Part shown: positions 25,167-58,122 of the stretch, piece after piece
Layout of the letters: the number at the start of each line of letters is the position of its first letter
Position numbering within the stretch: position 1 is the stretch's first letter
Position numbers and translations under genes: made by a program
Source of the DNA: an uncultured Thermoplasmata archaeon
GTDB taxonomy: Archaea > Thermoplasmatota > Thermoplasmata > JAGHBH01
Direction: 5' to 3'
Assembly: GCA_964601625.1 (NCBI GenBank)
Contig: CAZROC010000005.1
Location: forward strand, 21,077 to 85,076
Length of the DNA: 64,000 bases
Notes under the pieces: model-generated
Seen by the model: only the letters and a program-made list of their open reading frames with translations
Database searches by the model: none
What the model was told of the DNA's origin: nothing

Positions 25167-26270
25167 GTGAGTCTTATGACCGGCTCGGGAGAAGAACAGG
25201 GGAGCAGAGGCGGGAGCAGTGGTGATTTCCCTGAGTATGGGGGGGGTGTGAGCGGAGAGTTTTCTGTGGTAACAGATGTTGCCAGAAAAATAAGGGACAT
25301 GGAGATAAGGGGCGCTGGTAAGATAGGTCTCTCAGCCTCGGAGGCTCTGGTGGCGTTTTCAAAAAAATGGCTGGAAGCCCGTAGAGGTGAGTGTGGACCG
25401 GGCAGCGAGAACAAAGAGCGCTTCGTCAGTGACCTCGGCCGGGCTGTTGAGATTCTCGCATCTTCCAGGCCCACCGCTGTGTCGCTCAAAAACGCTCTGC
25501 TGTTCACAGTCTCAGGCGTTGAAGAAATGGGATCGGCGGAGGAAATGGCAGGGTTTATAGAATCCCGCCACAGATGGTTCAGGGGGGTTTTTGACACGGC
25601 GAGGAAGAAAATAGCAGAGTACGGTTCCTCTCTGATACCTGAAGACGCCACTGTGATGACTCACTGCAACAGCACCGCCGCTGTGAAGACAATAATAGAG
25701 GGATATAAAAAAGGCTGTGTGAAGAGAGTGTTTTTGACAGAGACCCGTCCCCGTTTCCAGGGGCGCATAACGGCCAGACAGCTCCGGGAGGCAGGTGTCC
25801 CCGCCACGATGGTAGTTGATAGTGGGATGAGATATTTTGTCAGAGACGCTGACATCGTCATAGTGGGCGCTGACACGGTGACCTCCACGGGGGTGCTGGT
25901 GAACAAGATAGGCACGGGGTTGCTGGCTCTGGCGGCGGAAGAGAGCCGCGTCCCGTTTTATTCCTGCGCCGAGTGTTTCAAGTTCTCTCCTTTCACCCTG
26001 GGAGGCGGGCGTGTGGTGATAGAAGAGAGGTCCCCCTCCGAGATATGGCCAGATGAAAAAAGCGGTGGGAAGGAGGGTCTCTCTCCACCCGAGGGACTGG
26101 AATTCCGCAACCCCGCTTTTGAGACAGTGGCCCCCGACCTGATAGACGGTTATATAACCGACATGGGAGTCCTGTCCCCGCACACAGCTCCGATGGTCAT
26201 CTTTGACAGGTTTTTCGGAAAAATCCTGGAAGATAACATCTGGTTTGAAAGGCTTAAAAAGATAGGATGA
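25167..26270 (+). CDS. e2b2: ribose-1,5-bisphosphate isomerase (eIF-2B alpha/beta/delta-like)
   Basis: GAGKIGLSASEALV...TETRPRFQG...VGADTV is the eIF2B-like/R15P isomerase family pattern. Adjacent to AMP phosphorylase. Confidence 0.75.
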   Translation: MSLMTGSGEEQGSRGGSSGDFPEYGGGVSGEFSVVTDVARKIRDMEIRGAGKIGLSASEALVAFSKKWLEARRGECGPGSENKERFVSDLGRAVEILASSRPTAVSLKNALLFTVSGVEEMGSAEEMAGFIESRHRWFRGVFDTARKKIAEYGSSLIPEDATVMTHCNSTAAVKTIIEGYKKGCVKRVFLTETRPRFQGRITARQLREAGVPATMVVDSGMRYFVRDADIVIVGADTVTSTGVLVNKIGTGLLALAAEESRVPFYSCAECFKFSPFTLGGGRVVIEERSPSEIWPDEKSGGKEGLSPPEGLEFRNPAFETVAPDLIDGYITDMGVLSPHTAPMVIFDRFFGKILEDNIWFERLKKIG

Positions 26271-26282
26271 GAATATTATAAA

Positions 26283-26328
26283 AGGAAAGGTGCGACAGGA
26301 AAAGTGCAACAGGAAAGGTGCGACAGGA
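26283..26328 (+). repeat. three tandem ~15-bp direct repeats (aaaGGTGCGACAGGA / aaaGTGCAACAGGA / aaGGTGCGACAGGA) immediately upstream of deoA
   Basis: Seen directly in the sequence. The last copy merges into the GGAGGTGA SD. Confidence 0.5.
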
Positions 26329-26338
26329 GGTGAATACT

Positions 26339-27871
26339 ATGGAAAACGGGTTCAACAGGTTGAAAGTGAAAATGCTGGACATCGTGTCAGAGAGATGTGT
26401 TGCCATTTTGAACGTAAAAGACGCCAGCGAGCTGGGCGTTCGCCAGCAGGATCGTGTCCGCATAATGGGAAAAAGAGGGGAGATCGTTGCACTGGTTGAG
26501 ACCACATCTTCCCTTGTGCCCCCCGGGGAGGTTGGCCTTGTTCAGAACGCCTACGAGAAGATGGAACTGGCGGACCCCGAGGAAGAGGTTGTTGTAGTAC
26601 CGGCCGAGAAACCCACGTCTGTTGATTATATCAAAAAGAAGCTTGATGGTCAGCCCCTGTCTTCTGAGGAGATATTTGCAATCGTGAATGACATTGTTAA
26701 GAGAAACCTGAGCGATATAGAGCTGACCGCCTATGTTTCCGGGGTTTACATAAACGGTATGAACATGGACGAGACAGTTGCGCTGACCAGGGCGATGGTT
26801 GAGACCGGCGAGACGATTTCTTTTGACCGGGGTCCGATATATGATTTTCACAGCATAGGTGGAGTTCCGGGTAACAAGATAACCCTTCTGGTTGTTCCGA
26901 TAGTGGCCGCGGCTGGTCTGATGATACCCAAGACATGCAGCAGAGCCATAAGCAGTGCCTGTGGCACGGCGGACATTTTTGAGGTTCTAGCCCCTGTCTC
27001 GCTCACCATACACCAGATAAAGCAGATAACGGAGACAGTGGGAGGCGTGATAGCATGGGGCGGTGCGGTCAACATGGCACCGGCCGATGACCTGATAATC
27101 CGCGTGGAATACCCGCTTGGCATAGACCCGCACGCGCAGCTCCTGGCCTCAGTTATGGCTAAGAAAAAGGCTGTTGGCTCCGAGCGTCTGGCCATAGACA
27201 TCCCCATGGGACCGGGGACCAAGGTCCCGGATTATGCCACCGCCAGGACTTTTGCGAGGGACTTCATCACGCTGGGAGAGCACCTGGGTATGAAGGTTGA
27301 ATGTGCAATAACCTACGGCGGCCAGCCTGTTGGACGGGCGATAGGTCCGGCTGCGGAGGCGCGGGAGGCCCTCGCGGCCCTTGAAGGCAAACCATCCCCA
27401 AACAGTCTAATTGAAAAAGCAGTGGGTATGGCGTCAATACTCCTGTCCATGGATGGGAGAAGCAACTCCAGGGGGCTGGCCATGGAGATTCTAAAATCTG
27501 GAAAGGCCCTGGCGAAGATGAAAGAGATCATAGAAGCGCAGGGCGGGAACCCTGATGTAACATCCGACGATGTGCCCATAGGAAAATACACCTATGAATA
27601 CACGGCGAAAAGAGATGGCTATGTAAAGGGTATAAGCAACAGAGCCATGGTGAAAATAACCAGAGCCGCCGGTGCTCCCAAGGACAAAGGAGCGGCTGTA
27701 ATCCTGCGGGTGAAAGAGGGAGATGCCATAGACCCCGGAGACGTGCTTTTCACCATCCACGCCGACAACAGGAAAAAACTGCAGGACGCTGTGGACATAG
27801 CCAGGAAAACAGACCCCATAAAAGTGGAGGGCATGATAATAGAAAAAGTGCCGGCCATACATGAGATGTGA
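26339..27871 (+). CDS. deoA: AMP phosphorylase (thymidine-phosphorylase-like, DeoA)
   Basis: N-terminal extension plus a TP-family core (HSIGGVPGNKITLLVVPIVAAAG...). The ATG at 26339 is preceded by GGAGGTGA. Confidence 0.85.
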   Translation: MENGFNRLKVKMLDIVSERCVAILNVKDASELGVRQQDRVRIMGKRGEIVALVETTSSLVPPGEVGLVQNAYEKMELADPEEEVVVVPAEKPTSVDYIKKKLDGQPLSSEEIFAIVNDIVKRNLSDIELTAYVSGVYINGMNMDETVALTRAMVETGETISFDRGPIYDFHSIGGVPGNKITLLVVPIVAAAGLMIPKTCSRAISSACGTADIFEVLAPVSLTIHQIKQITETVGGVIAWGGAVNMAPADDLIIRVEYPLGIDPHAQLLASVMAKKKAVGSERLAIDIPMGPGTKVPDYATARTFARDFITLGEHLGMKVECAITYGGQPVGRAIGPAAEAREALAALEGKPSPNSLIEKAVGMASILLSMDGRSNSRGLAMEILKSGKALAKMKEIIEAQGGNPDVTSDDVPIGKYTYEYTAKRDGYVKGISNRAMVKITRAAGAPKDKGAAVILRVKEGDAIDPGDVLFTIHADNRKKLQDAVDIARKTDPIKVEGMIIEKVPAIHEM

Positions 27872-27974
27872 TGTGTATTTGGTCAGTGAATATTTTATAT
27901 CCTTTACCTAAACCTCTTTCCGAACATCAGAAAATCTTAGAAAATGTTAATATCGTAAGCATCATAACGGTGGG

Positions 27975-29222
27975 TTGATGAATAACTGGGCTAAGATAAT
28001 AATCGGTGATAGCCGAAAAATGATAGAAGTTGGAGATAATAGTGTAGATCTGGTTGTTACGTCTCCCCCTTATTGGCATATTAAAGATTACGAAGTTGAA
28101 GGACAAATCGGATATGGGCAGAGTCTCCATGAATATTTGAAAGATTTATACAGAGTGTGGAAAGAATGCTACAGAATTCTTAAACCGGGACGGAGAATGG
28201 CTATAAATATAGGCGATCAATTCGCTCGTTCTGTAATTTATGGTAGATATAAAGTCATACCATTGCATGCTGAGTTCATAGCTCAGTGCGAGGATATAGG
28301 CTTTGATTATATGGGAGCAATAATCTGGCAGAAGAAAACCACAATGAATACGACCGGTGGAGCAAATGTGATGGGTTCTTATCCCTATCCTCCTAACGGA
28401 ATGATTGAGATTGACTATGAGTTTATACTTATTTTTAAAAAACCCGGAAAAAGTGGAAAGATTCCAAAGGAAATTAAGGAAATGTCTAAGCTAAGCAAGG
28501 AAGAGTGGAAAGAATACTTCTACGGGCACTGGTATTTTGGTGGTGCAAGGCAGATAGAACATGAGGCCATGTTTCCAGAAGAACTACCAAAAAGGTTGAT
28601 AAAGATGTATACGTTCGTAGGCGATACTGTTCTTGACCCTTTCCTTGGAAGCGGAACTACTGTAAAAGCAGCTTTGAATCTGAATAGAAATTCAATAGGT
28701 TATGAAATAAATGAAATGTTTTTAGATGTGATAAAAGAAAAACTGGGATTGAAACAAAGTTTACTTCAATTTAGTGGGGATATACAAATAATAAAACGAC
28801 GTACTGCGATAGAGGTTGATGAGATTAATTATGTCCCGAGAATCAAAGATGCCAGACCAAAAATAGATCCCAAAAAATTCAATTTTAAAAACGACAGACT
28901 TTATAAAGTTGTTGACATCATAGATGAACAAACTATTAAATTAAATACAGGTCTATTCGTTAGGTTCCTTGGTGTAAAAATAGATAAAAAGGAAGAAGCA
29001 TTGGAATATCTTCAAAATCGTGTTTTGAAAAAAGAGGTCTATCTTAAATTTGACAATGGCGTTGAGTTGAACGGAAATATTGTTAGTGCTTATGTTTATT
29101 TAAAAAATAGAATCTTCTTGAATGCGTATCTCATAAAATCTGGAATAGCGGTTCCGGACTTTTCAAAAGATTTTAAATTAAAGAACAAGTTCATCCAACT
29201 ATGGAGGAATAGTAATGGGTAA
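27975..29222 (+). CDS. beta-class N4-cytosine/N6-adenine DNA methyltransferase fused to C-terminal SNase-like (OB-fold nuclease-like) domain
   Basis: Motif IV SPPY comes before motif I DPFLGSGTT, which is the beta-group order. The C-terminal ~125 aa (VYLKFDNG...VSAYVYLKNRIFLNAYLIKSGIAVPDF) resembles the staphylococcal-nuclease fold. Sits in an AT-rich segment. Confidence 0.8.
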   Translation: MMNNWAKIIIGDSRKMIEVGDNSVDLVVTSPPYWHIKDYEVEGQIGYGQSLHEYLKDLYRVWKECYRILKPGRRMAINIGDQFARSVIYGRYKVIPLHAEFIAQCEDIGFDYMGAIIWQKKTTMNTTGGANVMGSYPYPPNGMIEIDYEFILIFKKPGKSGKIPKEIKEMSKLSKEEWKEYFYGHWYFGGARQIEHEAMFPEELPKRLIKMYTFVGDTVLDPFLGSGTTVKAALNLNRNSIGYEINEMFLDVIKEKLGLKQSLLQFSGDIQIIKRRTAIEVDEINYVPRIKDARPKIDPKKFNFKNDRLYKVVDIIDEQTIKLNTGLFVRFLGVKIDKKEEALEYLQNRVLKKEVYLKFDNGVELNGNIVSAYVYLKNRIFLNAYLIKSGIAVPDFSKDFKLKNKFIQLWRNSNG

Positions 29223-29306
29223 TGGCCTGGTTGTTATATATAGTATGAAGAGTTTTAATTCAACAAACGCTACCGGTTTACTCTTTTAAGGTAAGGAAGT
29301 GATAAA

Positions 29307-29981
29307 ATGGCAAAAGAATGGATATTGAACATGGCGACAAACAGATGGGGACTTAATAAGAAAAATAGTGTTGGGCCAGTATCTCAATGGATAAGGGAGT
29401 GTAGTCCAAGAACTATTAAAGATTGGGAACAATTTTATTATAAAAAGCTTGCTGATTTTCTCAAAGTAAAGGGTGTTTCTTTATCTCCTAAGGAGTATAT
29501 TGAAGATTTGGGAAGAAAATTGTATGTGAAAATTACAGAAGTTATACAGGCAGAAATAGAGGAAGTGACAGAAGAAGATTGTATTCGGTACATTTACAAC
29601 CTTGTAATTAACAGGACCTACGATGGCTATTTAACGGAGATAAAAACAATATATGGCAAGTTGCAAAGGGATTTGGGTGTTGATATAAAACCTGCACCGG
29701 ATGAGTGGGATAGACTTTACAATGTGGATTTTTATATACAAATTGGTAAAAATTATATTGGTTTGCAAATAAAACCGATAACTTATGAACAAACACCAGA
29801 AATTTACAGATGGAAAGAGTGGCTTGGTAAAACCCATAAGAAGTTTGAAGAAAATTTTGGTGGAAGAGTGTTTATTGTGTTTTCAATTAAAAAAGACAAC
29901 AAAAAGGAAATTTACAACCCGGAGATTATTGAAGAAATAAAAAAAGAAATTGAGAGGCTTAGAGAGAGGAGTTGGTCGTAA
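29307..29981 (+). CDS. putative type II restriction endonuclease (PD-(D/E)xK-like)
   Basis: D...YNVDFYIQIGKNYIGLQIKP is a PD-(D/E)xK-like motif. It sits immediately downstream of the MTase in the same AT-rich island. No family recognised. Confidence 0.45.
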   Translation: MAKEWILNMATNRWGLNKKNSVGPVSQWIRECSPRTIKDWEQFYYKKLADFLKVKGVSLSPKEYIEDLGRKLYVKITEVIQAEIEEVTEEDCIRYIYNLVINRTYDGYLTEIKTIYGKLQRDLGVDIKPAPDEWDRLYNVDFYIQIGKNYIGLQIKPITYEQTPEIYRWKEWLGKTHKKFEENFGGRVFIVFSIKKDNKKEIYNPEIIEEIKKEIERLRERSWS

Positions 29982-29997
29982 ACCTATCTAATCTTCT

Positions 29998-31347
29998 TCA
30001 CACGCGTATAGCCTTCCACCGCCCTGAGCGGTAGCGGATGAATATAACAGTGCTCCGGGCGTAGTACTCTATGACCATGGCCAGCCAGACTCCATATAGG
30101 CCGAGGGATGTGTGGAAGCCCAAAACCATTGCCAGTGGGATCCTGAACCCGTATAAGCCGAAAAGCGAAGCGTAGAGGGGATATTTTGTGTCTCCTGCCC
30201 CTCTGAGGGCGCCGGCGAGGGTGAAATGGGTCGCTATGGCGATTTCCCCTATTGCGAGTATCCGTATGAAAACCACGGATAGAGTCACAACGGTTTCGTC
30301 CCGTATGAAAACCTCTGCTACCGGCCTGGCAAAAACGAAGAGCAGGAGACCCAGGGAGCCCATGGTCAGAATGGCGAGTTTGAGAGAGAGCCAGCCGCTC
30401 TTTTCTGCCGTCTCGGGGGCTCTCTCCCCGAGGTAGCGGCCGGACAGGGCGGTCGCGGCGGTGGCGAACCCCAGACCAGGCATGAATGAAAGGCTCTGGA
30501 CCCGCATACCTATGCTGTGCGCCGCGACAGCGGCGTCTCCGAACCTGACCACCATTATCATGTATATCAGAAAACCTATCTGGATGGCCACTTGCTCCGT
30601 TGCGGCAGGGAGCCCTATGCGGACTATCCTCGTCATCATCTCTCCATCGGGGACCAGGGCGCCTGGCACTATTTGCACATCTCTTTTCTTGGAAATGAGT
30701 ATGGAAGCATATATCATCGCTCCCACTAAAAAAGAGAGGAGAGTCCCCAGGCCAGCACCTTTCACTCCCATGGCCGGCATGCCGAGTTTTCCGAAGATGA
30801 AGATGTAGTTGAAAAACACGTTGAAGGCGTTCGTTGTTCCGTTTATACACATGGGCGTTTTTGCGTCTCCGGTGGCTATAAAAGAGGCTGCTGACACGGC
30901 CATGACAGCGAAGAGGGGAGAGCCAGCAAAAACAAAACGGGTATATTCCGCTGCCAGAGCTGATACGTCTAGGCTCGCCCCGTATATTCCCACGACGATG
31001 TCCGGTCGGAGTGTTCCGAGGAAGAAAAAAGGGATGCTTATCACGGCAGCGAGCAGGTAGGATTGTCCCACGGCCATGTCTCTATTCTTTGTCTCACCGG
31101 AACCTGTGAAGCGGGAGACGAGAGCCACGGTCCCCGCGGTCACAGCGGCCAGAACGGTCATAAGGATGAAAAAGACCTGGCCGCCTATGGTTACGCCGCC
31201 GACCGCTTTTCGTCCGAGGGTGCCCACCATTATTATGTCCGCTGTGACAGCCAGTGTCTGGAAAAGATTGTTGAGTATGGATGGCCAGGCGAGATGAAAA
31301 ACCTGTTTTATTAAATTATCACCTTCTGACACAAACGGGCTTAACAT
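29998..31347 (-). CDS. MATE family efflux transporter
   Basis: 449 aa, 12 TM helices, and an N-terminus (FHLAWPSILNNLFQTLAVTADIIMVG) typical of MATE. Confidence 0.85.
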   Translation of the reverse strand: MLSPFVSEGDNLIKQVFHLAWPSILNNLFQTLAVTADIIMVGTLGRKAVGGVTIGGQVFFILMTVLAAVTAGTVALVSRFTGSGETKNRDMAVGQSYLLAAVISIPFFFLGTLRPDIVVGIYGASLDVSALAAEYTRFVFAGSPLFAVMAVSAASFIATGDAKTPMCINGTTNAFNVFFNYIFIFGKLGMPAMGVKGAGLGTLLSFLVGAMIYASILISKKRDVQIVPGALVPDGEMMTRIVRIGLPAATEQVAIQIGFLIYMIMVVRFGDAAVAAHSIGMRVQSLSFMPGLGFATAATALSGRYLGERAPETAEKSGWLSLKLAILTMGSLGLLLFVFARPVAEVFIRDETVVTLSVVFIRILAIGEIAIATHFTLAGALRGAGDTKYPLYASLFGLYGFRIPLAMVLGFHTSLGLYGVWLAMVIEYYARSTVIFIRYRSGRWKAIRV

Positions 31348-31379
31348 TATCGTGATATATTAGTTTTTGTCCGTCGCAC

Positions 31380-32135
31380 TCATTTTTCTTCTGCAATATG
31401 TTCTTTTTTCGCAGGTCTTGTGCCTATTTTTTCTTCCCGCCCATAGAAAACAAAACCATAATAGGAGATGTAGGAGGACAGGAGCATGCCCACGAGAATT
31501 ACCGGGTGGAAAGGGTGTGTGAAGGGGTTGTCACACCTCGAGGCAGCGTTGAGCCCAAAGCCCACTGCGTAGAGAGAGACGGTTATTATAAATCCGTATA
31601 CGGTCATATAAAGACGTGTTTTTTCAATTTTCTTTATTCTTCTGGCAGCGTTCTGAAGGAAAACGGCAGGTACGAGTGTGAAAAAAGCGGCGTACGTCGT
31701 TCCCAGAAAAACCATGAGTGGTTCAAGGTCCTGGTGGAAGGTTTCGTTTATGTCGCTCCTGGGAGGATGCATGTAAAATACGAGCCCGCAGACGAATATG
31801 GCCAGAAAAAGGTTGACGCCTATGAAAACCCTCCGCCACCCCCGGAAATCCCCATACAGGAGCTTTAGAGCGAACCCGGAGAAGAAAAACGGTGTGAACG
31901 TCAGGAAGACCCTTGAGACCAGGAACGTGTTTATTCCTCCCGCTCCCACGACCATAAACGGTCCCAGCAGGAGAAGGGTTCCCTGTAATATCAGGGCAGA
32001 AGAGAACCAGAGGGCGCTTCCCTCTTCTTTTTTCATGGACAACACGGCCAGGCCCATTAAGAAGAGTATGAGACCGGTTATTGAATACAGTGACAGGGAT
32101 AGATATAGAGAGATGGTGTTCAACCGCACCACCAC
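31380..32135 (-). CDS. hypothetical polytopic membrane protein
   Basis: 251 aa with seven or more TM helices. Confidence 0.35.
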   Translation of the reverse strand: MVVRLNTISLYLSLSLYSITGLILFLMGLAVLSMKKEEGSALWFSSALILQGTLLLLGPFMVVGAGGINTFLVSRVFLTFTPFFFSGFALKLLYGDFRGWRRVFIGVNLFLAIFVCGLVFYMHPPRSDINETFHQDLEPLMVFLGTTYAAFFTLVPAVFLQNAARRIKKIEKTRLYMTVYGFIITVSLYAVGFGLNAASRCDNPFTHPFHPVILVGMLLSSYISYYGFVFYGREEKIGTRPAKKEHIAEEK

Positions 32136-51254: not shown

Positions 51255-51298
51255 CCGCCAACGTGGTCCCTCATGGAGAAGTGGTTTAAAAGGTTTTG

Positions 51299-52315
51299 CT
51301 TTCTTAAAACGAGTGCAGTATCCCGAAATATTTTAACAGTTGTTCCTGTTAGGGGTATGCGGAAGTTGAATGATAGGAAGGTTCGTTGGATTATCAGGGA
51401 GATTGAGAAGGGTTCCAGTATGTCCAGGGTAGTTCGTATTCAGGGGGTTTCCCGTGTGCGTGTTTGGCAGTTGTGGCGGGAATACGTGGCCACTGGAGAG
51501 GTTCCACGGTTACGGAAGCCTGGTAGGAAGCCTGTCCCTATACCTCGGCATGAGAGAGAGCTGGTTTTTGAGATGTATGAGAGATACAAACTCGGCCCCC
51601 TGGCTTTGGAAAGAAAGATCAGGCGGGAGACCGGACAGCATATCCCACACAACAAGATATACCGGATCATGTTGGAAGGAGGGCTGATTGTGGAAAACCC
51701 AAGAAAGAAAAGACAACGCAGATATGTGAGATTTGAAAGAACACACTCGATGAGCATGTGGCAAGGCGACTGGAAACAAGTCCAAATAGACGGCGAAAAG
51801 AAATGTCTCATTGCCTTTATGGATGATGCCAGCAGACGAATAATGTGCTATGGAATCTACGATCATGCGACCACAGAAAACACCATACGGACACTAAGAG
51901 AGGGTTTCCGCAGACACGGGTGTCCTAGGGAGATTCTCATAGACCACGGACCACAATTCACAGCCAACAAAAAAAGAGACAAGAAAGGACGCGGTAAACA
52001 TCCTTTCCCAGAGTTCCTGAGACAACACGGCATAAAACATATTCTAGCAAGGGTCCAACACCCACAAACAAATGGCAAAATAGAACGCTTCTTCGGCACC
52101 CTCGAACAAAAACTCCCACTGTTCAACAACAACATACACGAACTCATACACCGGTACAACTATGACAAACCACACATGAGTTTGGATTTTGAGAACGCAG
52201 AAACACCAGAAGAAGCATTCTGGAGAAAACTCCCACCAGAAAAAATCCTTGAATACGCGGGGTGGTTACTTGAAGCGTAAAATCAATTCAGGATACTACA
52301 CTTTCTTAAAACGAG
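51299..52315 (+). mobile_element. IS481-like insertion sequence (987-bp core 51314-52300) with imperfect terminal inverted repeats and 15-bp direct target duplication
   Basis: Left end TGCAGTATCCCGAA (51314-51327) and right end TTCAGGATACTACA (52287-52300) are inverted. Identical CTTTCTTAAAACGAG copies flank both ends (51299-51313; 52301-52315). Confidence 0.65.
51357..52280 (+). CDS. transposase (HTH + DDE integrase-core/rve domain)
   Basis: DDE region (CLIAFMDDASRRIM...ILIDHGPQFTA...HPQTNGKIERFFGTLEQ) is typical of IS481/IS3-type rve. The Met at 51357 lies within the IS boundaries. Confidence 0.75.
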   Translation: MRKLNDRKVRWIIREIEKGSSMSRVVRIQGVSRVRVWQLWREYVATGEVPRLRKPGRKPVPIPRHERELVFEMYERYKLGPLALERKIRRETGQHIPHNKIYRIMLEGGLIVENPRKKRQRRYVRFERTHSMSMWQGDWKQVQIDGEKKCLIAFMDDASRRIMCYGIYDHATTENTIRTLREGFRRHGCPREILIDHGPQFTANKKRDKKGRGKHPFPEFLRQHGIKHILARVQHPQTNGKIERFFGTLEQKLPLFNNNIHELIHRYNYDKPHMSLDFENAETPEEAFWRKLPPEKILEYAGWLLEA

Positions 52316-52360
52316 CGATTGGTTTATATCCTCTGCTTTTTTTATGAGTGAGGAGAGAGT

Positions 52361-53398
52361 ATGAAAGTAATGATGTGTCCGCCAACTGGAACTCCATATT
52401 TAGATCTGTTGAAACAAGCGTTGGAGGAAGAAGGAATTAGGGTGGTCCCGGTTTCTTGGTTTGGCAAACAGACGGTGTATTCGCTATCTCAGCTTTTTAA
52501 AGGAAAAATAGGTGGGGCGAACATATTACATTTGCATTGGATGCCTTTTAACTGGTTTTACATGATGAGAATGGTGAGAAAGATATCTGGTTTTATTAAG
52601 GCAGAAATGGTATGGACCATTCACAACCTAATACCACATGAACCCAGATATGGAAGCACTGAAAAAGATATAGAGGCAATGAAATATATGGCTAATTGGG
52701 CGGTTGCGGGTATAGCACATTGCGAAAAAACGAAAGAAGAGTTTCATCAAATATATAGAAAAGATATGCCTATTTTTGTAATACCTCATGGTAATTTTAA
52801 TAAATATACCACTCCTTTTATCAAAGATCCAGAGGAATCACGAAAAAAATTGAATATACCGCCTGATAAAATAGTTCTTTTGCTGTTTCCTGCTAATCGT
52901 TGGAACAAGGGTATAAAAATGTTTATTGATGTAGTAAAGAAGCTTCCGGAAGAATATATGGGAATCCTTGCTGGAAAATGCAAAAATACAGAAATAAAAA
53001 ATTATATTAAACGAGAGACACAAAAAAATAGAGATAAATTTATAGTCAACCTTGGGTATCTAACTGATGAGGAAGCTGGATATTATTTTAGCGCCTCAGA
53101 CATATTTTTTATGCCATACACATACATAACTACTTCCGGTAGTGTGATGTATGCATTAGGGTTCAAAAAACCGGTCATTTCTACGCCAAAGGGTAACTTA
53201 TATCAACTTGTGAAAAACGGTATTAATGGCTTTTTATGTGAAAATGAAGAAGAAATGATAGAAAAAATACTTAGTATAGATCGGGAAACAGCTAGAAAAA
53301 TGGGAGAAGAAAGTTATAGAATAGCATCTCAACCTCAATTTAATTGGAGAGAAATTGCTAAAAAAACAATATCTGTTTATGAATATATAACAAAATAA
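52361..53398 (+). CDS. GT1/GT4-family glycosyltransferase
   Basis: C-terminal GT-B pattern (ALGFKKPVISTPKGNLYQLVKNGINGFL). AT-rich codon usage. Confidence 0.7.
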   Translation: MKVMMCPPTGTPYLDLLKQALEEEGIRVVPVSWFGKQTVYSLSQLFKGKIGGANILHLHWMPFNWFYMMRMVRKISGFIKAEMVWTIHNLIPHEPRYGSTEKDIEAMKYMANWAVAGIAHCEKTKEEFHQIYRKDMPIFVIPHGNFNKYTTPFIKDPEESRKKLNIPPDKIVLLLFPANRWNKGIKMFIDVVKKLPEEYMGILAGKCKNTEIKNYIKRETQKNRDKFIVNLGYLTDEEAGYYFSASDIFFMPYTYITTSGSVMYALGFKKPVISTPKGNLYQLVKNGINGFLCENEEEMIEKILSIDRETARKMGEESYRIASQPQFNWREIAKKTISVYEYITK

Positions 53399-53486
53399 AA
53401 GAACAAAATAATATAAAATAAAAAATAATATTAAGAGATATAAAAAACTGGCGGATGGATTTTTATACTGTAGGGACTATTTACCG

Positions 53487-54911
53487 TTGATGTTAGAAAA
53501 CGGAAAGCCAGACATCCTCTTTATAGTCTTGGACACTATGCGAAAAGATTATACTTTAATGCTTGAAAAAGAATTATCAAAATACAATTTTATATCTTAC
53601 GATAGGGCCATTTCTCCGGCTCCTTGGACCACACCATCTCACGCATCTATTTTTTCTGGGATGTATCCTGCTTTCCATGGGGTTCATGAGTCCAAAAGAA
53701 GAAAGCTGACAGATGTGTTTTTTAAAAAAGGGTTAAATAATCTTATTATTTCATTAAAAAATCATAAATATAAAACATGTCTGTTCAGTAGTAATAACTT
53801 TGTAACTCCAATCTATGGGTTTAAACCATTTGACCATTTTTTCTATGTTCACGCGTTCCCTCCCTCCTGGAACTTTTTATCAGATCAGGAGAGAAAAATA
53901 ATCTCTAAAATGAAATTTAATATCGACAATCCATTCCAAATGATAAATTTATTACATAATTCTGATGTTAAAATCACAGCTCTTAAATATATCTCCGAAA
54001 CGACGGCAAATATGTTAATTAGATTTAACGCAAAATTATTTTTTAATTGGCCAAAAAATAAAGGTAATCGCTTATTAACAAATAAAGTAAAAGATGTTCT
54101 TTTAAAAGAAAATAGTTCTTCATCTGATAGATATCCTCGTTTTATTTTTGTAAATTTTATGGAAGTTCATGAGCCATACACCATCAATGAACCAGTTAGT
54201 TTTTTGGATAATCTAAAAGAGAATGGGGCGTCTGAGAGGAATCTCTACGTCTGGAAAAAGAAATATAAGGAATTTTCTGAATATCTAAATAAAAATATAA
54301 TAACATTAATAAAAAACCTTGAAGATAAACTTGATAACATGCTAATCATAATTACCAGCGACCATGGACAGCTTTTAGGAGAGCATGGAAATAAAGTGGG
54401 TCATGGAACATATCTCTATGATGAACTTTTACGGGTTCCATTTTTAATTAGGTATCCGGATTCTTGGAAAAATAAAAATTCTCTTGAAAGATGGGAAACA
54501 ACAGACACCGAATCATGGCTTAGTTTGATAAAAGTAAAAGACATCATTGAAAAAGTTATCCTGTCCGATTCCTCCACTGTCTCAAAGAAGAAAATTCTAT
54601 CGGATATTGTATTCAGTGAAAGTTACGGGATACATCGTCGTGTAAGCTGGCTAAACGATTCTAAATCTCTGGCATCCAACGGAAAAACAGAAGAAATGGA
54701 GATAATCAAAAAAATCACACATTTAGAAAAGTACAGGATCGCAATATATTATAAAAATTCCAAAGTGATATTTAATGTTTCTGACTGGAAAATAGAAAGC
54801 ATTTCTTCTTTTAGTGATAAGATAATTGACGAAAAAGCTCTCATATATGAAGTGAAGAAACACGTCATGAATTTTATAAAAACTTCTACCGTACGCTCTT
54901 TAGTGCGTTAA
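53487..54911 (+). CDS. sulfatase-family (alkaline-phosphatase superfamily) protein
   Basis: N-terminus ILFIVLDTMRKDY...SPAPWTTPSHASIFSG resembles the sulfatase/phosphotransferase metal-site region. SDHG also present. Confidence 0.65.
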   Translation: MMLENGKPDILFIVLDTMRKDYTLMLEKELSKYNFISYDRAISPAPWTTPSHASIFSGMYPAFHGVHESKRRKLTDVFFKKGLNNLIISLKNHKYKTCLFSSNNFVTPIYGFKPFDHFFYVHAFPPSWNFLSDQERKIISKMKFNIDNPFQMINLLHNSDVKITALKYISETTANMLIRFNAKLFFNWPKNKGNRLLTNKVKDVLLKENSSSSDRYPRFIFVNFMEVHEPYTINEPVSFLDNLKENGASERNLYVWKKKYKEFSEYLNKNIITLIKNLEDKLDNMLIIITSDHGQLLGEHGNKVGHGTYLYDELLRVPFLIRYPDSWKNKNSLERWETTDTESWLSLIKVKDIIEKVILSDSSTVSKKKILSDIVFSESYGIHRRVSWLNDSKSLASNGKTEEMEIIKKITHLEKYRIAIYYKNSKVIFNVSDWKIESISSFSDKIIDEKALIYEVKKHVMNFIKTSTVRSLVR

Positions 54912-54956
54912 AAGTATGCCTTTTGTCCTTTTCGTACTTCCGGCGAGGATGTCAAG

Positions 54957-55806
54957 TTATTGCCTCCTTAGGTTGTATATTGTGATGAATGATAGGCACC
55001 ATGATAGTGCTGTTTCTGGTTTGGCGTTGTGTGGCCATCTTTTGTAGAATTGTTTGATTCTGTGTTTGAATATGTGGTACCATTGCTCTATTGGGTTTCT
55101 TGGTCCGAAGGTTTTGTGTTCCCATGTTAGTCCCATTCGTTGTAGGGCCCATGGGTTTGTTGGGAATTGCTTAGGGCAATTCCCCAAATCGTGCGGAATT
55201 TTAACAGAGTTAAAATTCCGTAGATACCATGGGCCCCCGTCTACGTAGATGTGTGGTTTGTTTGTACAGGTTTTTAGGATCTTTCTTAGAAAGATGTATG
55301 TGTCTAGTCCTGAGCGGGTTGTTGTTATTTGTATTGCTAGTATTTCCCATGTTTGTGTGTCTATGGCTGTCCACATGTAGTGCCATTTTCCCTGGATTTT
55401 TATCTTTGTCTCGTCTATTGCTATTGTTGGTCTATGTTTTTTCTCGGGTGTTGATAGTAGGTGTTTTGCTCTGTGGTACCATTGTCTGGCTGCCTCATAG
55501 CTGCCTCCCCCCGAACAGTCTCAGGACTTCCTCTGTTTTCCTATAGGATAGTCCCAGGTAGACTAATAGTATTTCCAGCGCTCTTATTTCCATGGGGGTT
55601 CTTTCTCTCACGAAAACCTTTTTAGCCCTTAACAATTCTACTATCCTCGTGAGCATATCCCATCCCTTCTGGCCCAACAAACCGGACCAAAACAGGGATA
55701 TGCTCACACCAAACTTAACACTTATCTTGACATCCTCTTCCGGCTTTATGGTATGCTTTTTATATAAGAGAGTATATAAGAGATTCTTGAGGGAATGCGA
55801 TGCCAA
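54957..55806 (-). pseudogene. IS6-family-like transposase, disrupted (N-terminal HTH ORF 55495-55806; DDE fragment 54957-55376)
   Basis: The N-terminal ORF (RERTPMEIRALEILLVYLGLSYRKTEEVL) and the C-terminal fragment (WTAIDTQTWEILAI...NPIEQWYHIFKHRIKQF) lie in different frames with a gap, so the element is degenerate. Confidence 0.5.
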
Positions 55807-57389
55807 AACTTATAATCCTAGGTCTTGACGGCGCTACATGGGATATATTAATGCCTCTATTAAACGAAGGCAGGCTTAAAAACTTAAAACGTATGGTTGA
55901 AAATGGTAGTTATGGAAATTTAATTTCTACAATCCCCCCAATAACTTCTCCCGCATGGGTATCCATGGCTACTGGGAAAAATCCGGGGCAGCTGGGAGTC
56001 TTTGATCTGTTGTATAGAGAAAACGAAGAAGAATTAACTTTGAAGCCTGTTTATTTCTATATGTTTAAAGGAAGTTTTTATTGGGATTTTTTGTCTAACA
56101 TGGGTTACAGAGTAGGACTCATTTTTTATCCTTTTCTGTACCCTCCATACAGAATCAATGGAATTATGGTTCCGGGATATGGCGCACCGTCTGAAGAAAA
56201 GATGTATCCATCCACCCTTTCGGATGAAATAAAGAAACGATTTGGAGAAATTAAATTTATGAAAGGTAGCCCAGCAGGTCTAAGCGATGAAAAGGCCTTT
56301 AAAGAGATTGTTTCAATAACGAAACAGCATTTTGAGATAGGAAAATACATCATTGAAAATAATGACTTGGATGTAATAACGTTTGTCATTTCTGGTACGG
56401 ATTGGATTCAGCATTTTTTCTGGAAATTTCTTGATCCAACACACGCGCTTTATGATGAAAAAATCGCTACTGTTTATAGAGAAAAAATATTTAAATTTTA
56501 TGAATATATAGATGAACAAATAGGAGATATTATTGGAATGTTTCCAGATAGCAACTTTATTATAGTTTCTGACCATGGTTTTGGTTCCTTAGATCAATAT
56601 TTCAATTTAGTTAAATGGTTGATTGATAATGGTTATATGGTATTTAAAAGAAAAATATCTGGATATTCAAAATTTAAAAATTCTATATTACAGTTCATGA
56701 GTAAGATAAACAGGCGAATTCCAATAGTAAAGATAATTCCCCGTTCTATATCAAAAAAAGCATGGGCAACCCTCAAAATTGATATCTCAGAAGTTCTTGA
56801 TTTAGAAAGGACAAAAGCATTCTGTTTAGGACATCATACGTCTATGGGAAGCATATATGTAAATAAGACGCTTATTTCAAATAAAAAAGATGTTGAAAAA
56901 ATAAAAAACGATATAAAAAACGGTTTAATAGAAACACTAAAACGTTTTGGCGTGGAGAATGTTAAATTTTATTCAAAAGAGGACATCTACCATGGGAAAA
57001 AAGCTCATCTGGCTCCGGATATGTGGTTCTCTGTGAACGATGGAAGATGTGCAATTATGCAACAGAGGATTGATCATCCAGTTCTGTTTGAAAATGTCCC
57101 ACTGGAAAAACGGATAAATGGAAGTCACCGCTTTGAGGGAATTTTTTTAGCATATGGACCTGATCTGGCGGCGAAAGGAAACATGGGAGATCTGTCCATA
57201 TATGATATTGCACCTACTGTTCTATCGTTTTTCGGTATACCCCCCCCATCTGATATGGACGGCAAAGTAATAGAGGAAATATTACCCCGAGGCAGGGTTA
57301 GAAATATAAAAAGTGTTTCAGCGAGAGACCTCGAAAAGATGCGCATAAAAGAAAAACTCCGCCAGATGAAACAGTTAAAGAACGTATAA
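55800..57389 (+). CDS. alkaline-phosphatase-superfamily protein (type I phosphodiesterase/nucleotide pyrophosphatase-like)
   Basis: ILGLDGATWDIL...SPAWVSMATGKNPGQLGVFD...SDHGFG are metal-site motifs of PF01663-like enzymes. Confidence 0.6.
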   Translation: MPKLIILGLDGATWDILMPLLNEGRLKNLKRMVENGSYGNLISTIPPITSPAWVSMATGKNPGQLGVFDLLYRENEEELTLKPVYFYMFKGSFYWDFLSNMGYRVGLIFYPFLYPPYRINGIMVPGYGAPSEEKMYPSTLSDEIKKRFGEIKFMKGSPAGLSDEKAFKEIVSITKQHFEIGKYIIENNDLDVITFVISGTDWIQHFFWKFLDPTHALYDEKIATVYREKIFKFYEYIDEQIGDIIGMFPDSNFIIVSDHGFGSLDQYFNLVKWLIDNGYMVFKRKISGYSKFKNSILQFMSKINRRIPIVKIIPRSISKKAWATLKIDISEVLDLERTKAFCLGHHTSMGSIYVNKTLISNKKDVEKIKNDIKNGLIETLKRFGVENVKFYSKEDIYHGKKAHLAPDMWFSVNDGRCAIMQQRIDHPVLFENVPLEKRINGSHRFEGIFLAYGPDLAAKGNMGDLSIYDIAPTVLSFFGIPPPSDMDGKVIEEILPRGRVRNIKSVSARDLEKMRIKEKLRQMKQLKNV

Positions 57390-57393
57390 CTTC

Positions 57394-58122
57394 TCAGTTC
57401 CCCGCCGCCTCCAGTATCACCCTTGCGAAATCTGTTATTTTTGGTGTGCCAAGGTCTGTGAAGTTGGTGCTCCAGAATCCGTAGTCGGAGTGGTCTCCAT
57501 ATGCTCCTACGGGTTTCATTCCGTGGTCGGACAGGACTATTTTTTTGCCCGGTGCTTTTGCTTCCGCTGTTTTCACTATGTCTTCTATGTCCCGGTATAT
57601 CATTTTCATGAGCAGTCTGTTTCCAAAGTTGAGGTGGCCTATCACGTCTGCCACGGAGAAATAGCCGAGGACGAGGTCGTGGTCTTCTCCAAGTGCTTTG
57701 AAAAACTCCTCTTTTATTTTTCTGTGGTGGGCGAAAGAGAGGTCGTTGTACTCTTTTTTTATCTCTTTTTTCTTTTCCTCGTCCTCCGCCGAGAAATAGG
57801 CTTTGAGAAGTTCTCTTTCTCTGCTGTGCTGGTTGAGGTCGTAGTTGTATCCGGGGAGATCTATTATTTTTGGGTTGTCAAAACGGGAAAAAAAGGTTTC
57901 TTCCAGGGGAATGCGGGTGTTCCACATCTCTCTGTCTCCTTTTGCGAGTATCTCTGCCTCTTTGTTCTGCCCGGTCATGAATGAGCTCCACAGCACCATC
58001 GTCCTTGGCTGGGAGAACTCTGTTATGTCTGTTTTTCCGTAAAACTTCTGTTTGATTCCTCTGAGGTTAAATTCCTCCACCAGGCTGTACTCCAGCGCGT
58101 CAACGGCTATTATGGTTATCAT
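57394..58122 (-). CDS. small alkaline-phosphatase-superfamily protein
   Basis: IIAVDALEY...VLWSSFMTGQ...LSDHGM is the same metal-site pattern in a shorter protein. Confidence 0.45.
   Translation of the reverse strand: MITIIAVDALEYSLVEEFNLRGIKQKFYGKTDITEFSQPRTMVLWSSFMTGQNKEAEILAKGDREMWNTRIPLEETFFSRFDNPKIIDLPGYNYDLNQHSRERELLKAYFSAEDEEKKKEIKKEYNDLSFAHHRKIKEEFFKALGEDHDLVLGYFSVADVIGHLNFGNRLLMKMIYRDIEDIVKTAEAKAPGKKIVLSDHGMKPVGAYGDHSDYGFWSTNFTDLGTPKITDFARVILEAAGN

Follow-up and report, generated by a model that had tools for sequence, protein, structure and literature searches.

Which system is encoded by the AT-rich island that separates deoA from a MATE transporter gene in the genome of an uncultured Thermoplasmata archaeon, and how did it come to lie there? 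We addressed this question on a stretch of 64,000 nucleotides (hereafter the window; assembly GCA_964601625.1, contig CAZROC010000005.1, positions 21,077 to 85,076 of the forward strand), in which the island occupies positions 27872 to 29997. A preliminary description, made from the letters of the DNA without database searches, had seen in it a DNA methyltransferase (MTase) fused to a staphylococcal nuclease (SNase) domain and followed by an unclassified endonuclease. All together, the data presented below favour, with a probability of roughly 0.8, a minimal two-gene type IIP restriction-modification (R-M) cassette of the MjaI family, horizontally inserted in the gap between the facing 3' ends of deoA and MATE. 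The island and its two genes are the following:

27872..29997, no strand: AT-rich inserted block of 2126 bp, filling the gap between the stop codons of deoA and MATE
27978..29222, plus strand: type II beta-class DNA MTase, predicted to form N4-methylcytosine (m4C), 414 aa, with a PF01555 match
29307..29981, plus strand: MjaI-family type II restriction endonuclease (REase), 224 aa, with a PF09568 RE_MjaI match

The second gene encodes an MjaI-family restriction endonuclease

The 224-aa product of the second open reading frame (ORF) matched the Pfam profile PF09568 (RE_MjaI) with an E-value of 1e-51 and 175.5 bits, compared to a gathering score of 22.7; residues 4-182 of the protein cover positions 1-160 of the 164 in the model. 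The REase_II model of PADLOC was matched as well (E=8.6e-37). In a search of 5.8 billion proteins we recovered 4864 relatives, the best 120 of which are 73-92% identical to the REase, and several of the close relatives carry the NCBI name 'MjaI family restriction endonuclease'. None of the NCBIfam models matches the protein, and a comparison of its sequence with those of solved structures gave no match. A catalogue of 2012 (Steczkiewicz et al., PMC3424549) already places PF09568/MjaI among the type II REase families with a PD-(D/E)XK core and reports it from bacteria as well as archaea. The second ORF belongs to this family and not to a new one; the earlier proposal of an endonuclease without recognisable family, possibly a new type II REase, has to be abandoned in view of the two profile matches.

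By contrast, the PD-(D/E)xK core that the preliminary description had suspected in this protein was borne out, and the string that it had quoted, D...DFYIQIGKNYIGLQIK, with its QIK end, is contained in the ORF. Specifically, an AlphaFold 2 (AF2) model built from 43 sequences, with a mean predicted local distance difference test score (pLDDT) of 82, showed an N-terminal helical part, a helix at residues 89-123, strands at 127-129, 142-146 and 149-158, a helix at 166-184 and a strand at 185-196, which is the alpha-beta-beta-beta-alpha-beta topology of the canonical PD-(D/E)XK core. Foldseek comparison of this model with the PDB retrieved PD-(D/E)XK nucleases only, namely bunyavirus cap-snatching endonucleases, Hjc resolvases and HincII. 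Conservation was assessed at two levels, among 32 diverse representatives of the family (27-53% identity) and within the close subfamily (42 homologs), and it highlights the following positions:

29637..29639, plus strand: E111, candidate helix glutamate of the PD-(D/E)XK site, at least 90% conserved among the 32 members, in helix 89-123
29727..29729, plus strand: D141, the 'PD' aspartate (VDF), sole acidic residue invariant throughout the family, at the start of strand 142-146
29766..29774, plus strand: Q154-I155-K156, the '(D/E)xK' strand motif in the form QxK, invariant in the close subfamily, in strand 149-158

D141, Q154 and K156 are all invariant within the close subfamily. Among the diverse representatives the strand motif reads (Q/S/K)-[IV]-K, with the lysine largely kept, and G152 and P157 each reach a conservation of at least 90%. 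From the model and the alignments we infer an active site made up of E111 in the helix, D141 where strand 2 begins and K156 in strand 3, with Q154 in the place of the second acid. The copy found in the window retains every residue that is invariant among the 42 homologs.

In the public gene call the REase starts at the second ATG (29331; L001 11354), which yields 216 aa and lies 8 codons too late. The alignments support 29307 (224 aa) as the true start, because the first 8 residues are conserved in homologs, with E4, W5, L7 and N8 invariant, and an SD-like (Shine-Dalgarno-like) sequence, GGAAGTGA, is found upstream.

The first gene encodes a beta-class amino-methyltransferase

The first ORF, which opens at ATG 27978 (414 aa) or at TTG 27975 (415 aa), is a beta-class N4/N6 DNA methyltransferase with SPPY as catalytic motif. 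Its product matched PF01555 (N6_N4_Mtase) over aa 24-255 with E=1.5e-49 and, over its full length, the PADLOC model MTase_II PDLC03259 (423 positions, E=5e-129), the specificity of which is unstated. The two diagnostic motifs map as follows:

28062..28073, plus strand: motif IV, SPPY, catalytic motif, aa 29-32
28635..28661, plus strand: motif I, DPFLGSGTT, S-adenosylmethionine binding, aa 220-228

The preliminary description had already read SPPY before DPFLGSGTT, and we agree with its assignment of the enzyme to the beta class, since motif IV precedes motif I (class order as defined in PMC5867850). SPPY, and not DPPY, is also the motif of the characterised m4C CTAG MTases M.MthZI, M.MjaI and M.BfaI and of HVO_0794 (PMC5867850). 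Among MTases of solved structure, TTHA0409 of Thermus thermophilus HB8 (PDB 2zie, 297 aa; E=1.6e-56) comes closest. It aligns to aa 8-258 of the window MTase and, different from the latter, has no SNase-like domain; CcrM (PDB 6pbd), itself a beta-class MTase, aligns around motif I. A protein identical to the MTase (P0121) is present in public data.

The MTase carries a SNase-like domain that is most likely nuclease-dead

The catalytic part of the MTase is followed by an additional domain:

28896..29219, plus strand: C-terminal SNase-like oligonucleotide/oligosaccharide-binding (OB)-fold domain, predicted to be catalytically dead, aa about 307-414

From about aa 309 the AF2 model of the MTase reaches a pLDDT of 82-95, and Foldseek aligned this part to staphylococcal nuclease with a probability of 1.0 (TM-score 0.56-0.65, 22% identity, root-mean-square deviation of about 3 A over 116-126 columns). 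The fold common to both is an OB-barrel plus three helices. At the level of sequence profiles, SNase (PF00565) scored 20.8 bits, just under its cut-off of 21 and along model positions 24-78 of 107 only, and a weak match to the thermonuclease NucI was obtained. A single-sequence search of the domain against PDB sequences gave no SNase match, the relationship being visible only by fold comparison and profile alignment.

To read the catalytic positions, the domain was aligned to a SNase reference sequence of which the landmark residues alone had been verified. The position of SNase D21 is taken by Q (36 of 40 MTase homologs have Q or H there), the column of D40 holds I, T or V in 35 of the 40, and R87 aligns to N (37/40) in one alignment and to I in the hhalign register. 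E43 falls on a mostly conserved E/D in one register, and the omega loop that follows it is deleted. The catalytic constellation of D21, D40, (T41), E43, R35 and R87 is therefore not present in the domain, which differs from staphylococcal nuclease also in being fused to a DNA MTase. Since neither the Ca2+ ligands nor R87 are conserved, we do not read it as a nuclease. The term 'MTase-SNase fusion' used by the preliminary description is correct as a description of the fold and misleading as to function. No account of such a fusion was found in the literature searched, which was a limited collection.

An MTase 88% identical to that of the window, with the SNase-like domain and with no REase, was observed in another assembly (L066 99-3375; GCA_029972165.1, JARKUL010000293.1), where its neighbours are a thymidylate synthase fragment and a 431-aa MTase matching a phage MTase family (E=3e-131). 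This virus-like cluster suggests that the orphan MTase is carried by viruses as a means against restriction. As the domain is kept in an orphan MTase lacking a REase partner, it would serve methylation itself, most likely by binding DNA, rather than act as a nuclease or control the REase.

On these grounds we take the SNase-like domain to be, most likely, a DNA-binding module devoid of nuclease activity. Nuclease-dead SNase-like OB domains are exemplified by Tudor-SN. The idea of DNA binding comes from CcrM, which has an accessory C-terminal DNA-binding domain; the two domains are likened by role only and not as homologs. It is doubtful, in our opinion, that this dead SNase/OB domain, conserved in thousands of homologs, represents a functionally important new accessory module for beta-class m4C MTases, in which case it might act as a DNA clamp permitting methylation at high temperature or tune modification versus restriction in place of a controller protein (C-protein); equally doubtful is the related idea that the cassette subfamily has a non-CTAG specificity.

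Composition, distribution and horizontal acquisition of the cassette

The genes on either side of the island are the following:

26339..27871, plus strand: deoA, of the archaeal AMP-phosphorylase type, left flank
29998..31347, minus strand: MATE transporter gene, right flank

The two genes are convergent, and the island exactly spans the gap from the stop codon of deoA (27871) to that of MATE (29998). The GC drop reported for this interval by the preliminary description was reproduced when composition was computed in windows: the island has a GC content of 0.342, compared to 0.509 +/- 0.052 in 2-kb windows elsewhere (z = -3.2), and in 500-nt windows the values fall from 0.52-0.58 to 0.31-0.39 over about 27750-30000. 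The same shift is seen at third codon positions (GC3), with 0.32 for the MTase and 0.31 for the REase versus 0.60 for deoA and 0.63 for MATE.

The same pair of genes, MTase then REase, was found in Caldimicrobium thiodismutans, in Atrimonas thermophila, where it sits in a prophage-like neighbourhood, and in one metagenome contig (L059, L060, L061). DNA similarity of these cassettes to the window is 70-82% and is limited to the coding regions (about 27970-29194 and 29293-29970). Unrelated archaea and bacteria carry the pair at a protein identity of 75-90%, and an MTase gene followed by the REase gene is the usual arrangement among the relatives from thermophilic members of both domains; including metagenome-assembled genomes (MAGs) of Archaeoglobi, Methanomicrobia and Thermoplasmata, the members of this subfamily share with the window the genes, their order and the C-terminal domain of the MTase, at 75-92% protein and 70-82% DNA identity, and differ from it in chromosomal site and in having overlapping genes where the window has an 84-nt spacer. 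Cultured carriers with a copy at least 82% identical include Caldimicrobium thiodismutans, Atrimonas thermophila, Thermodesulfobacterium hydrogeniphilum and Methermicoccus shengliensis, and for the latter two the value is at least 85%. Clustering at 90% identity places the REase of the window in a group of 211 members, one of them from an Archaeoglobi MAG. The GC content of the cassette ranges from 0.30 to 0.45 depending on the host and is below that of the adjoining DNA in every case. Viral contigs gave no REase match.

An empty site was found in the closest relative of the host, a Thermoplasmata MAG (L068, GCA_021161085.1) that encodes ribose-1,5-bisphosphate (R15P) isomerase, AMP phosphorylase and a convergent MATE transporter, the latter 64% identical over 450 aa to that of the window. 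In this genome the stop codons of deoA and MATE are 11 nt apart, and neither MTase nor REase lies between them. The AMP phosphorylase of the host shares 71% and 68% identity with its counterparts in Thermoplasmata MAGs and about 60% with those of Methanomassiliicoccales. Scans for deoA of genome and metagenome contigs had returned only relatives with at most 56% identity, and it was a full protein search that later found this locus; exact-protein look-ups of deoA and MATE led back to the contig of the window and, apart from it, to a single other contig, which breaks off 231 nt into the MTase gene. At the point of insertion we found no integrase or transposase, no tRNA and no flanking direct or inverted repeats.

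In conclusion, horizontal acquisition of the cassette, as the preliminary description had supposed, is well supported, because the shift in composition, the empty site and the near-identical cassettes in unrelated bacteria and archaea point in the same direction.

Further observations concern other copies of these genes. The contig ending 231 nt into the MTase gene (L064) and another one starting just before the REase gene (L067) come from independent short-read assemblies, and their breaks are consistent with a cassette shared at high identity among co-occurring organisms, which would confuse assemblers. In L060 (4763-5998) the MTase is called with 326 aa, yet DNA homology to the MTase gene of the window already sets in 255 nt before that start; this reflects either a mis-called start or a frameshift.

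Non-coding segments and putative regulatory signals

Two non-coding segments of the island were read for regulatory signals:

27872..27977, plus strand: non-coding leader of the cassette, GC 0.33, as read from the sequence
29223..29306, plus strand: spacer of 84 nt between the MTase and REase genes, GC 0.33

The leader contains an archaeal TATA-like element, TTTTATAT, at 27893-27900, which could be the promoter of the cassette, and an SD-like GGTGGG at 27969-27974; it is not homologous to the regions upstream of the other cassettes. Within the spacer a TATA-like TTATATATA maps to 29234-29242, as a putative promoter, and the SD-like sequence of the REase gene maps to 29295-29302. This AT-rich spacer is lacking in the bacterial cassettes, whose two genes overlap or abut. 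A hint from a MAFFT alignment that it might hold a degenerate duplicate of the 5' end of the REase gene was dropped, as identity was about 40% on inspection.

The island contains only two ORFs of real size and no gene for a C-protein, that is, a small helix-turn-helix controller; its minus-strand ORFs measure 51-68 aa and are nested inside the two genes. A scan for sigma-70 promoters and terminators stayed at or below shuffle expectation, the sigma-70 model being inapplicable to an archaeon, and an Rfam search of 26000-32000 gave no match.

Target specificity and alternative explanations

The nearest characterised counterparts of the cassette are MjaI/M.MjaI (MJ0984/MJ0985) of Methanocaldococcus jannaschii, MthZI and MaeI. 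The features shared with the window are the PF09568 REase (MjaI) and an adjacent SPPY beta-class amino-MTase; the context of an archaeal thermophile, the type IIP two-gene organisation and the CTAG specificity with m4C protection deduced here are further points of likeness. For MjaI (MJ0984), activity and CTAG specificity have been shown by experiment (PMC2615612); MthZI is its isoschizomer (PMC11033074), and m4C at CTAG has been observed also for the MaeI system (PMC10113651). M.MaeI is a further beta-class MTase with SPPY. Both MjaI and MthZI start with GTG (PMC2615612), whereas the REase of the window starts with ATG. The supplements of Blow et al. include Caldithrix abyssi and Desulfobacca acetoxidans among the organisms with m4C in CTAG, and none of their m4C CTAG organisms could be connected to our lists of homologs. 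Family membership and the SPPY motif make it probable that the cassette of the window likewise acts on CTAG and protects it by m4C.

All 16 four-base palindromes were counted, and observed numbers were compared with those expected from Markov or composition models. In the whole window CTAG occurs 22 times versus 66.6 expected (Markov), which makes it the second most depleted palindrome after TCGA. Within the four cassettes (7.7 kb) it occurs once, versus 11.0 (Markov) or 23.2 (composition) expected, and is the most depleted palindrome, with observed-to-expected (O/E) ratios of 0.04-0.09. The flanks of the three other hosts contain 0-2 sites each versus 13.2-21.8 expected (Markov), the lowest or near lowest value. 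On calibration, CTAG turned out to be depleted in archaeal DNA in general, and we rejected its avoidance in the host as evidence of specificity.

As a separate observation, TCGA is the most depleted palindrome of the whole window (18 versus 101 expected, O/E 0.18); for CGCG the O/E is 0.40. This hints at a present or past TaqI-like (TCGA) restriction pressure in the lineage; the island encodes no such system.

A number of observations weigh against the reading as an MjaI-family R-M cassette acquired from elsewhere, or against parts of it. The MTase, at 414 aa and with an extra SNase-fold domain, exceeds the 303-364 aa reported for characterised CTAG MTases (PMC5867850) and may represent a different lineage paired with the same REase family. 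MjaI and MthZI express poorly in E. coli (PMC2615612). The structural matches of the REase are weak (best E 8e-4, TM-score about 0.3), and the position of the second catalytic acid is occupied by Q and not by D or E, a variant motif that is common to the family. The flanking proteins of the empty-site genome are only 71% and 64% identical to those of the window, so that a deletion in that lineage is a formal alternative to insertion. As regards CTAG, its median O/E in 39 unrelated archaeal loci is 0.52; it ranks first in depletion in 18 of them, and 21% of the loci are as CTAG-depleted as the window. Moreover, the counts within the four cassettes are not independent, as these cassettes are homologous. 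REase families can include members with diverged specificity, and it is conceivable, although we regard it as unlikely, that the cassette is an MjaI-family R-M system of a large conserved subfamily that recognises a site other than CTAG. Besides the length of the MTase and the generic nature of host CTAG depletion, such a divergence would be in line with the identity of only 27-53% between the REase and the remaining family representatives, chosen at 50% identity, among which the type enzyme was not located. Against it, MjaI and its isoschizomer MthZI, the family members verified or found cited, cut CTAG; this palindrome is by far the most depleted one in the four cassettes and ranks last or last but one in the flanks of each of the three other hosts; and SPPY fits m4C formation as in the CTAG MTases.

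The remaining alternatives concern the activity of the two proteins. A cassette decayed or silent in this host, with an active MTase as de facto orphan and a REase not expressed or inactive, appears improbable: the insertion of about 85-90 nt between genes that overlap in other cassettes, the occurrence of close MTase homologs as orphans and the poor expression of MjaI and MthZI from native signals in E. coli would fit it, but both ORFs are full length, the REase keeps all its invariant residues and has a good SD-like sequence before its start, and the strongly deviant GC3 suggests a recent arrival that left little time for decay. Far less credible is a bifunctional methylase-nuclease with an active C-terminal SNase domain, which could appeal to the clear fold, to the near-threshold Pfam and weak NucI matches and to the E/D aligned with E43; it is contradicted by the substitutions at D21, D40 and R87 and the missing omega loop, by the dedicated REase encoded next door, and by the presence of the domain in the virus-like orphan MTase, where a non-specific nuclease would be self-harming. 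Finally, we see practically no room for the second ORF as an unclassified PD-(D/E)xK protein and the founder of a new type II REase family: the lack of an NCBIfam match and of a solved structure related by sequence, together with the distance of its structural neighbours, is outweighed by the near-full-length RE_MjaI match, the PADLOC match, a family catalogued since 2012 and source annotations that already read 'MjaI family restriction endonuclease'.

Proposed mode of action

If the cassette works as an MjaI-family system, the MTase would form m4C in the CTAG sites (C(m4)TAG) of host DNA, and the REase, probably a homodimer, would cut unmethylated C^TAG in incoming DNA. In the predicted active site of the REase, Mg2+ would be bound by D141 and E111, K156 would act as general base and water activator, and Q154 would occupy the usual position of the second acid. 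The dead SNase/OB domain would add non-specific DNA affinity to the MTase, a role comparable to that of the C-terminal DNA-binding domain of CcrM. With no C-protein at hand, the order of expression would presumably be set by the promoter-proximal position of the MTase gene plus the 84-nt spacer with its own TATA-like element.

Other features of the window

The island is not the sole AT-rich stretch of the window: on checking, the GC content was lower still at about 52-56.7 kb, within a larger stretch (51273-57400) with values of 0.30-0.33 in 1-kb windows. This stretch opens with an rve-family integrase/transposase gene (51273..52280) and also carries genes for a glycosyltransferase, a sulfatase and two type I phosphodiesterases/nucleotide pyrophosphatases. 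It is probably another horizontally acquired block, dedicated to cell-surface modification and unrelated to the R-M cassette.

On the other side of the island, the AMP-salvage genes for ribose-1,5-bisphosphate isomerase and AMP phosphorylase are adjacent at 25167-27871. In the 68%-identical relative (L069/L070 210-3622) a gene for the large subunit of form III RuBisCO lies between the two; in the window none is found at this place.

Significance

Beyond annotation the significance of these data is small. The locus neatly illustrates how an R-M cassette of no more than two genes can sit between convergent housekeeping genes, and the cassette is common to archaea and bacteria of hot anoxic habitats at 75-92% identity. 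The conserved nuclease-dead SNase-like domain of the MTase is the one feature with no obvious prior description, and it is a modest curiosity. For this Thermoplasmata lineage, the cassette amounts to the gain of a probable restriction barrier of the CTAG/m4C type, a point to consider in transformation and in the interpretation of methylomes and virus-host links.

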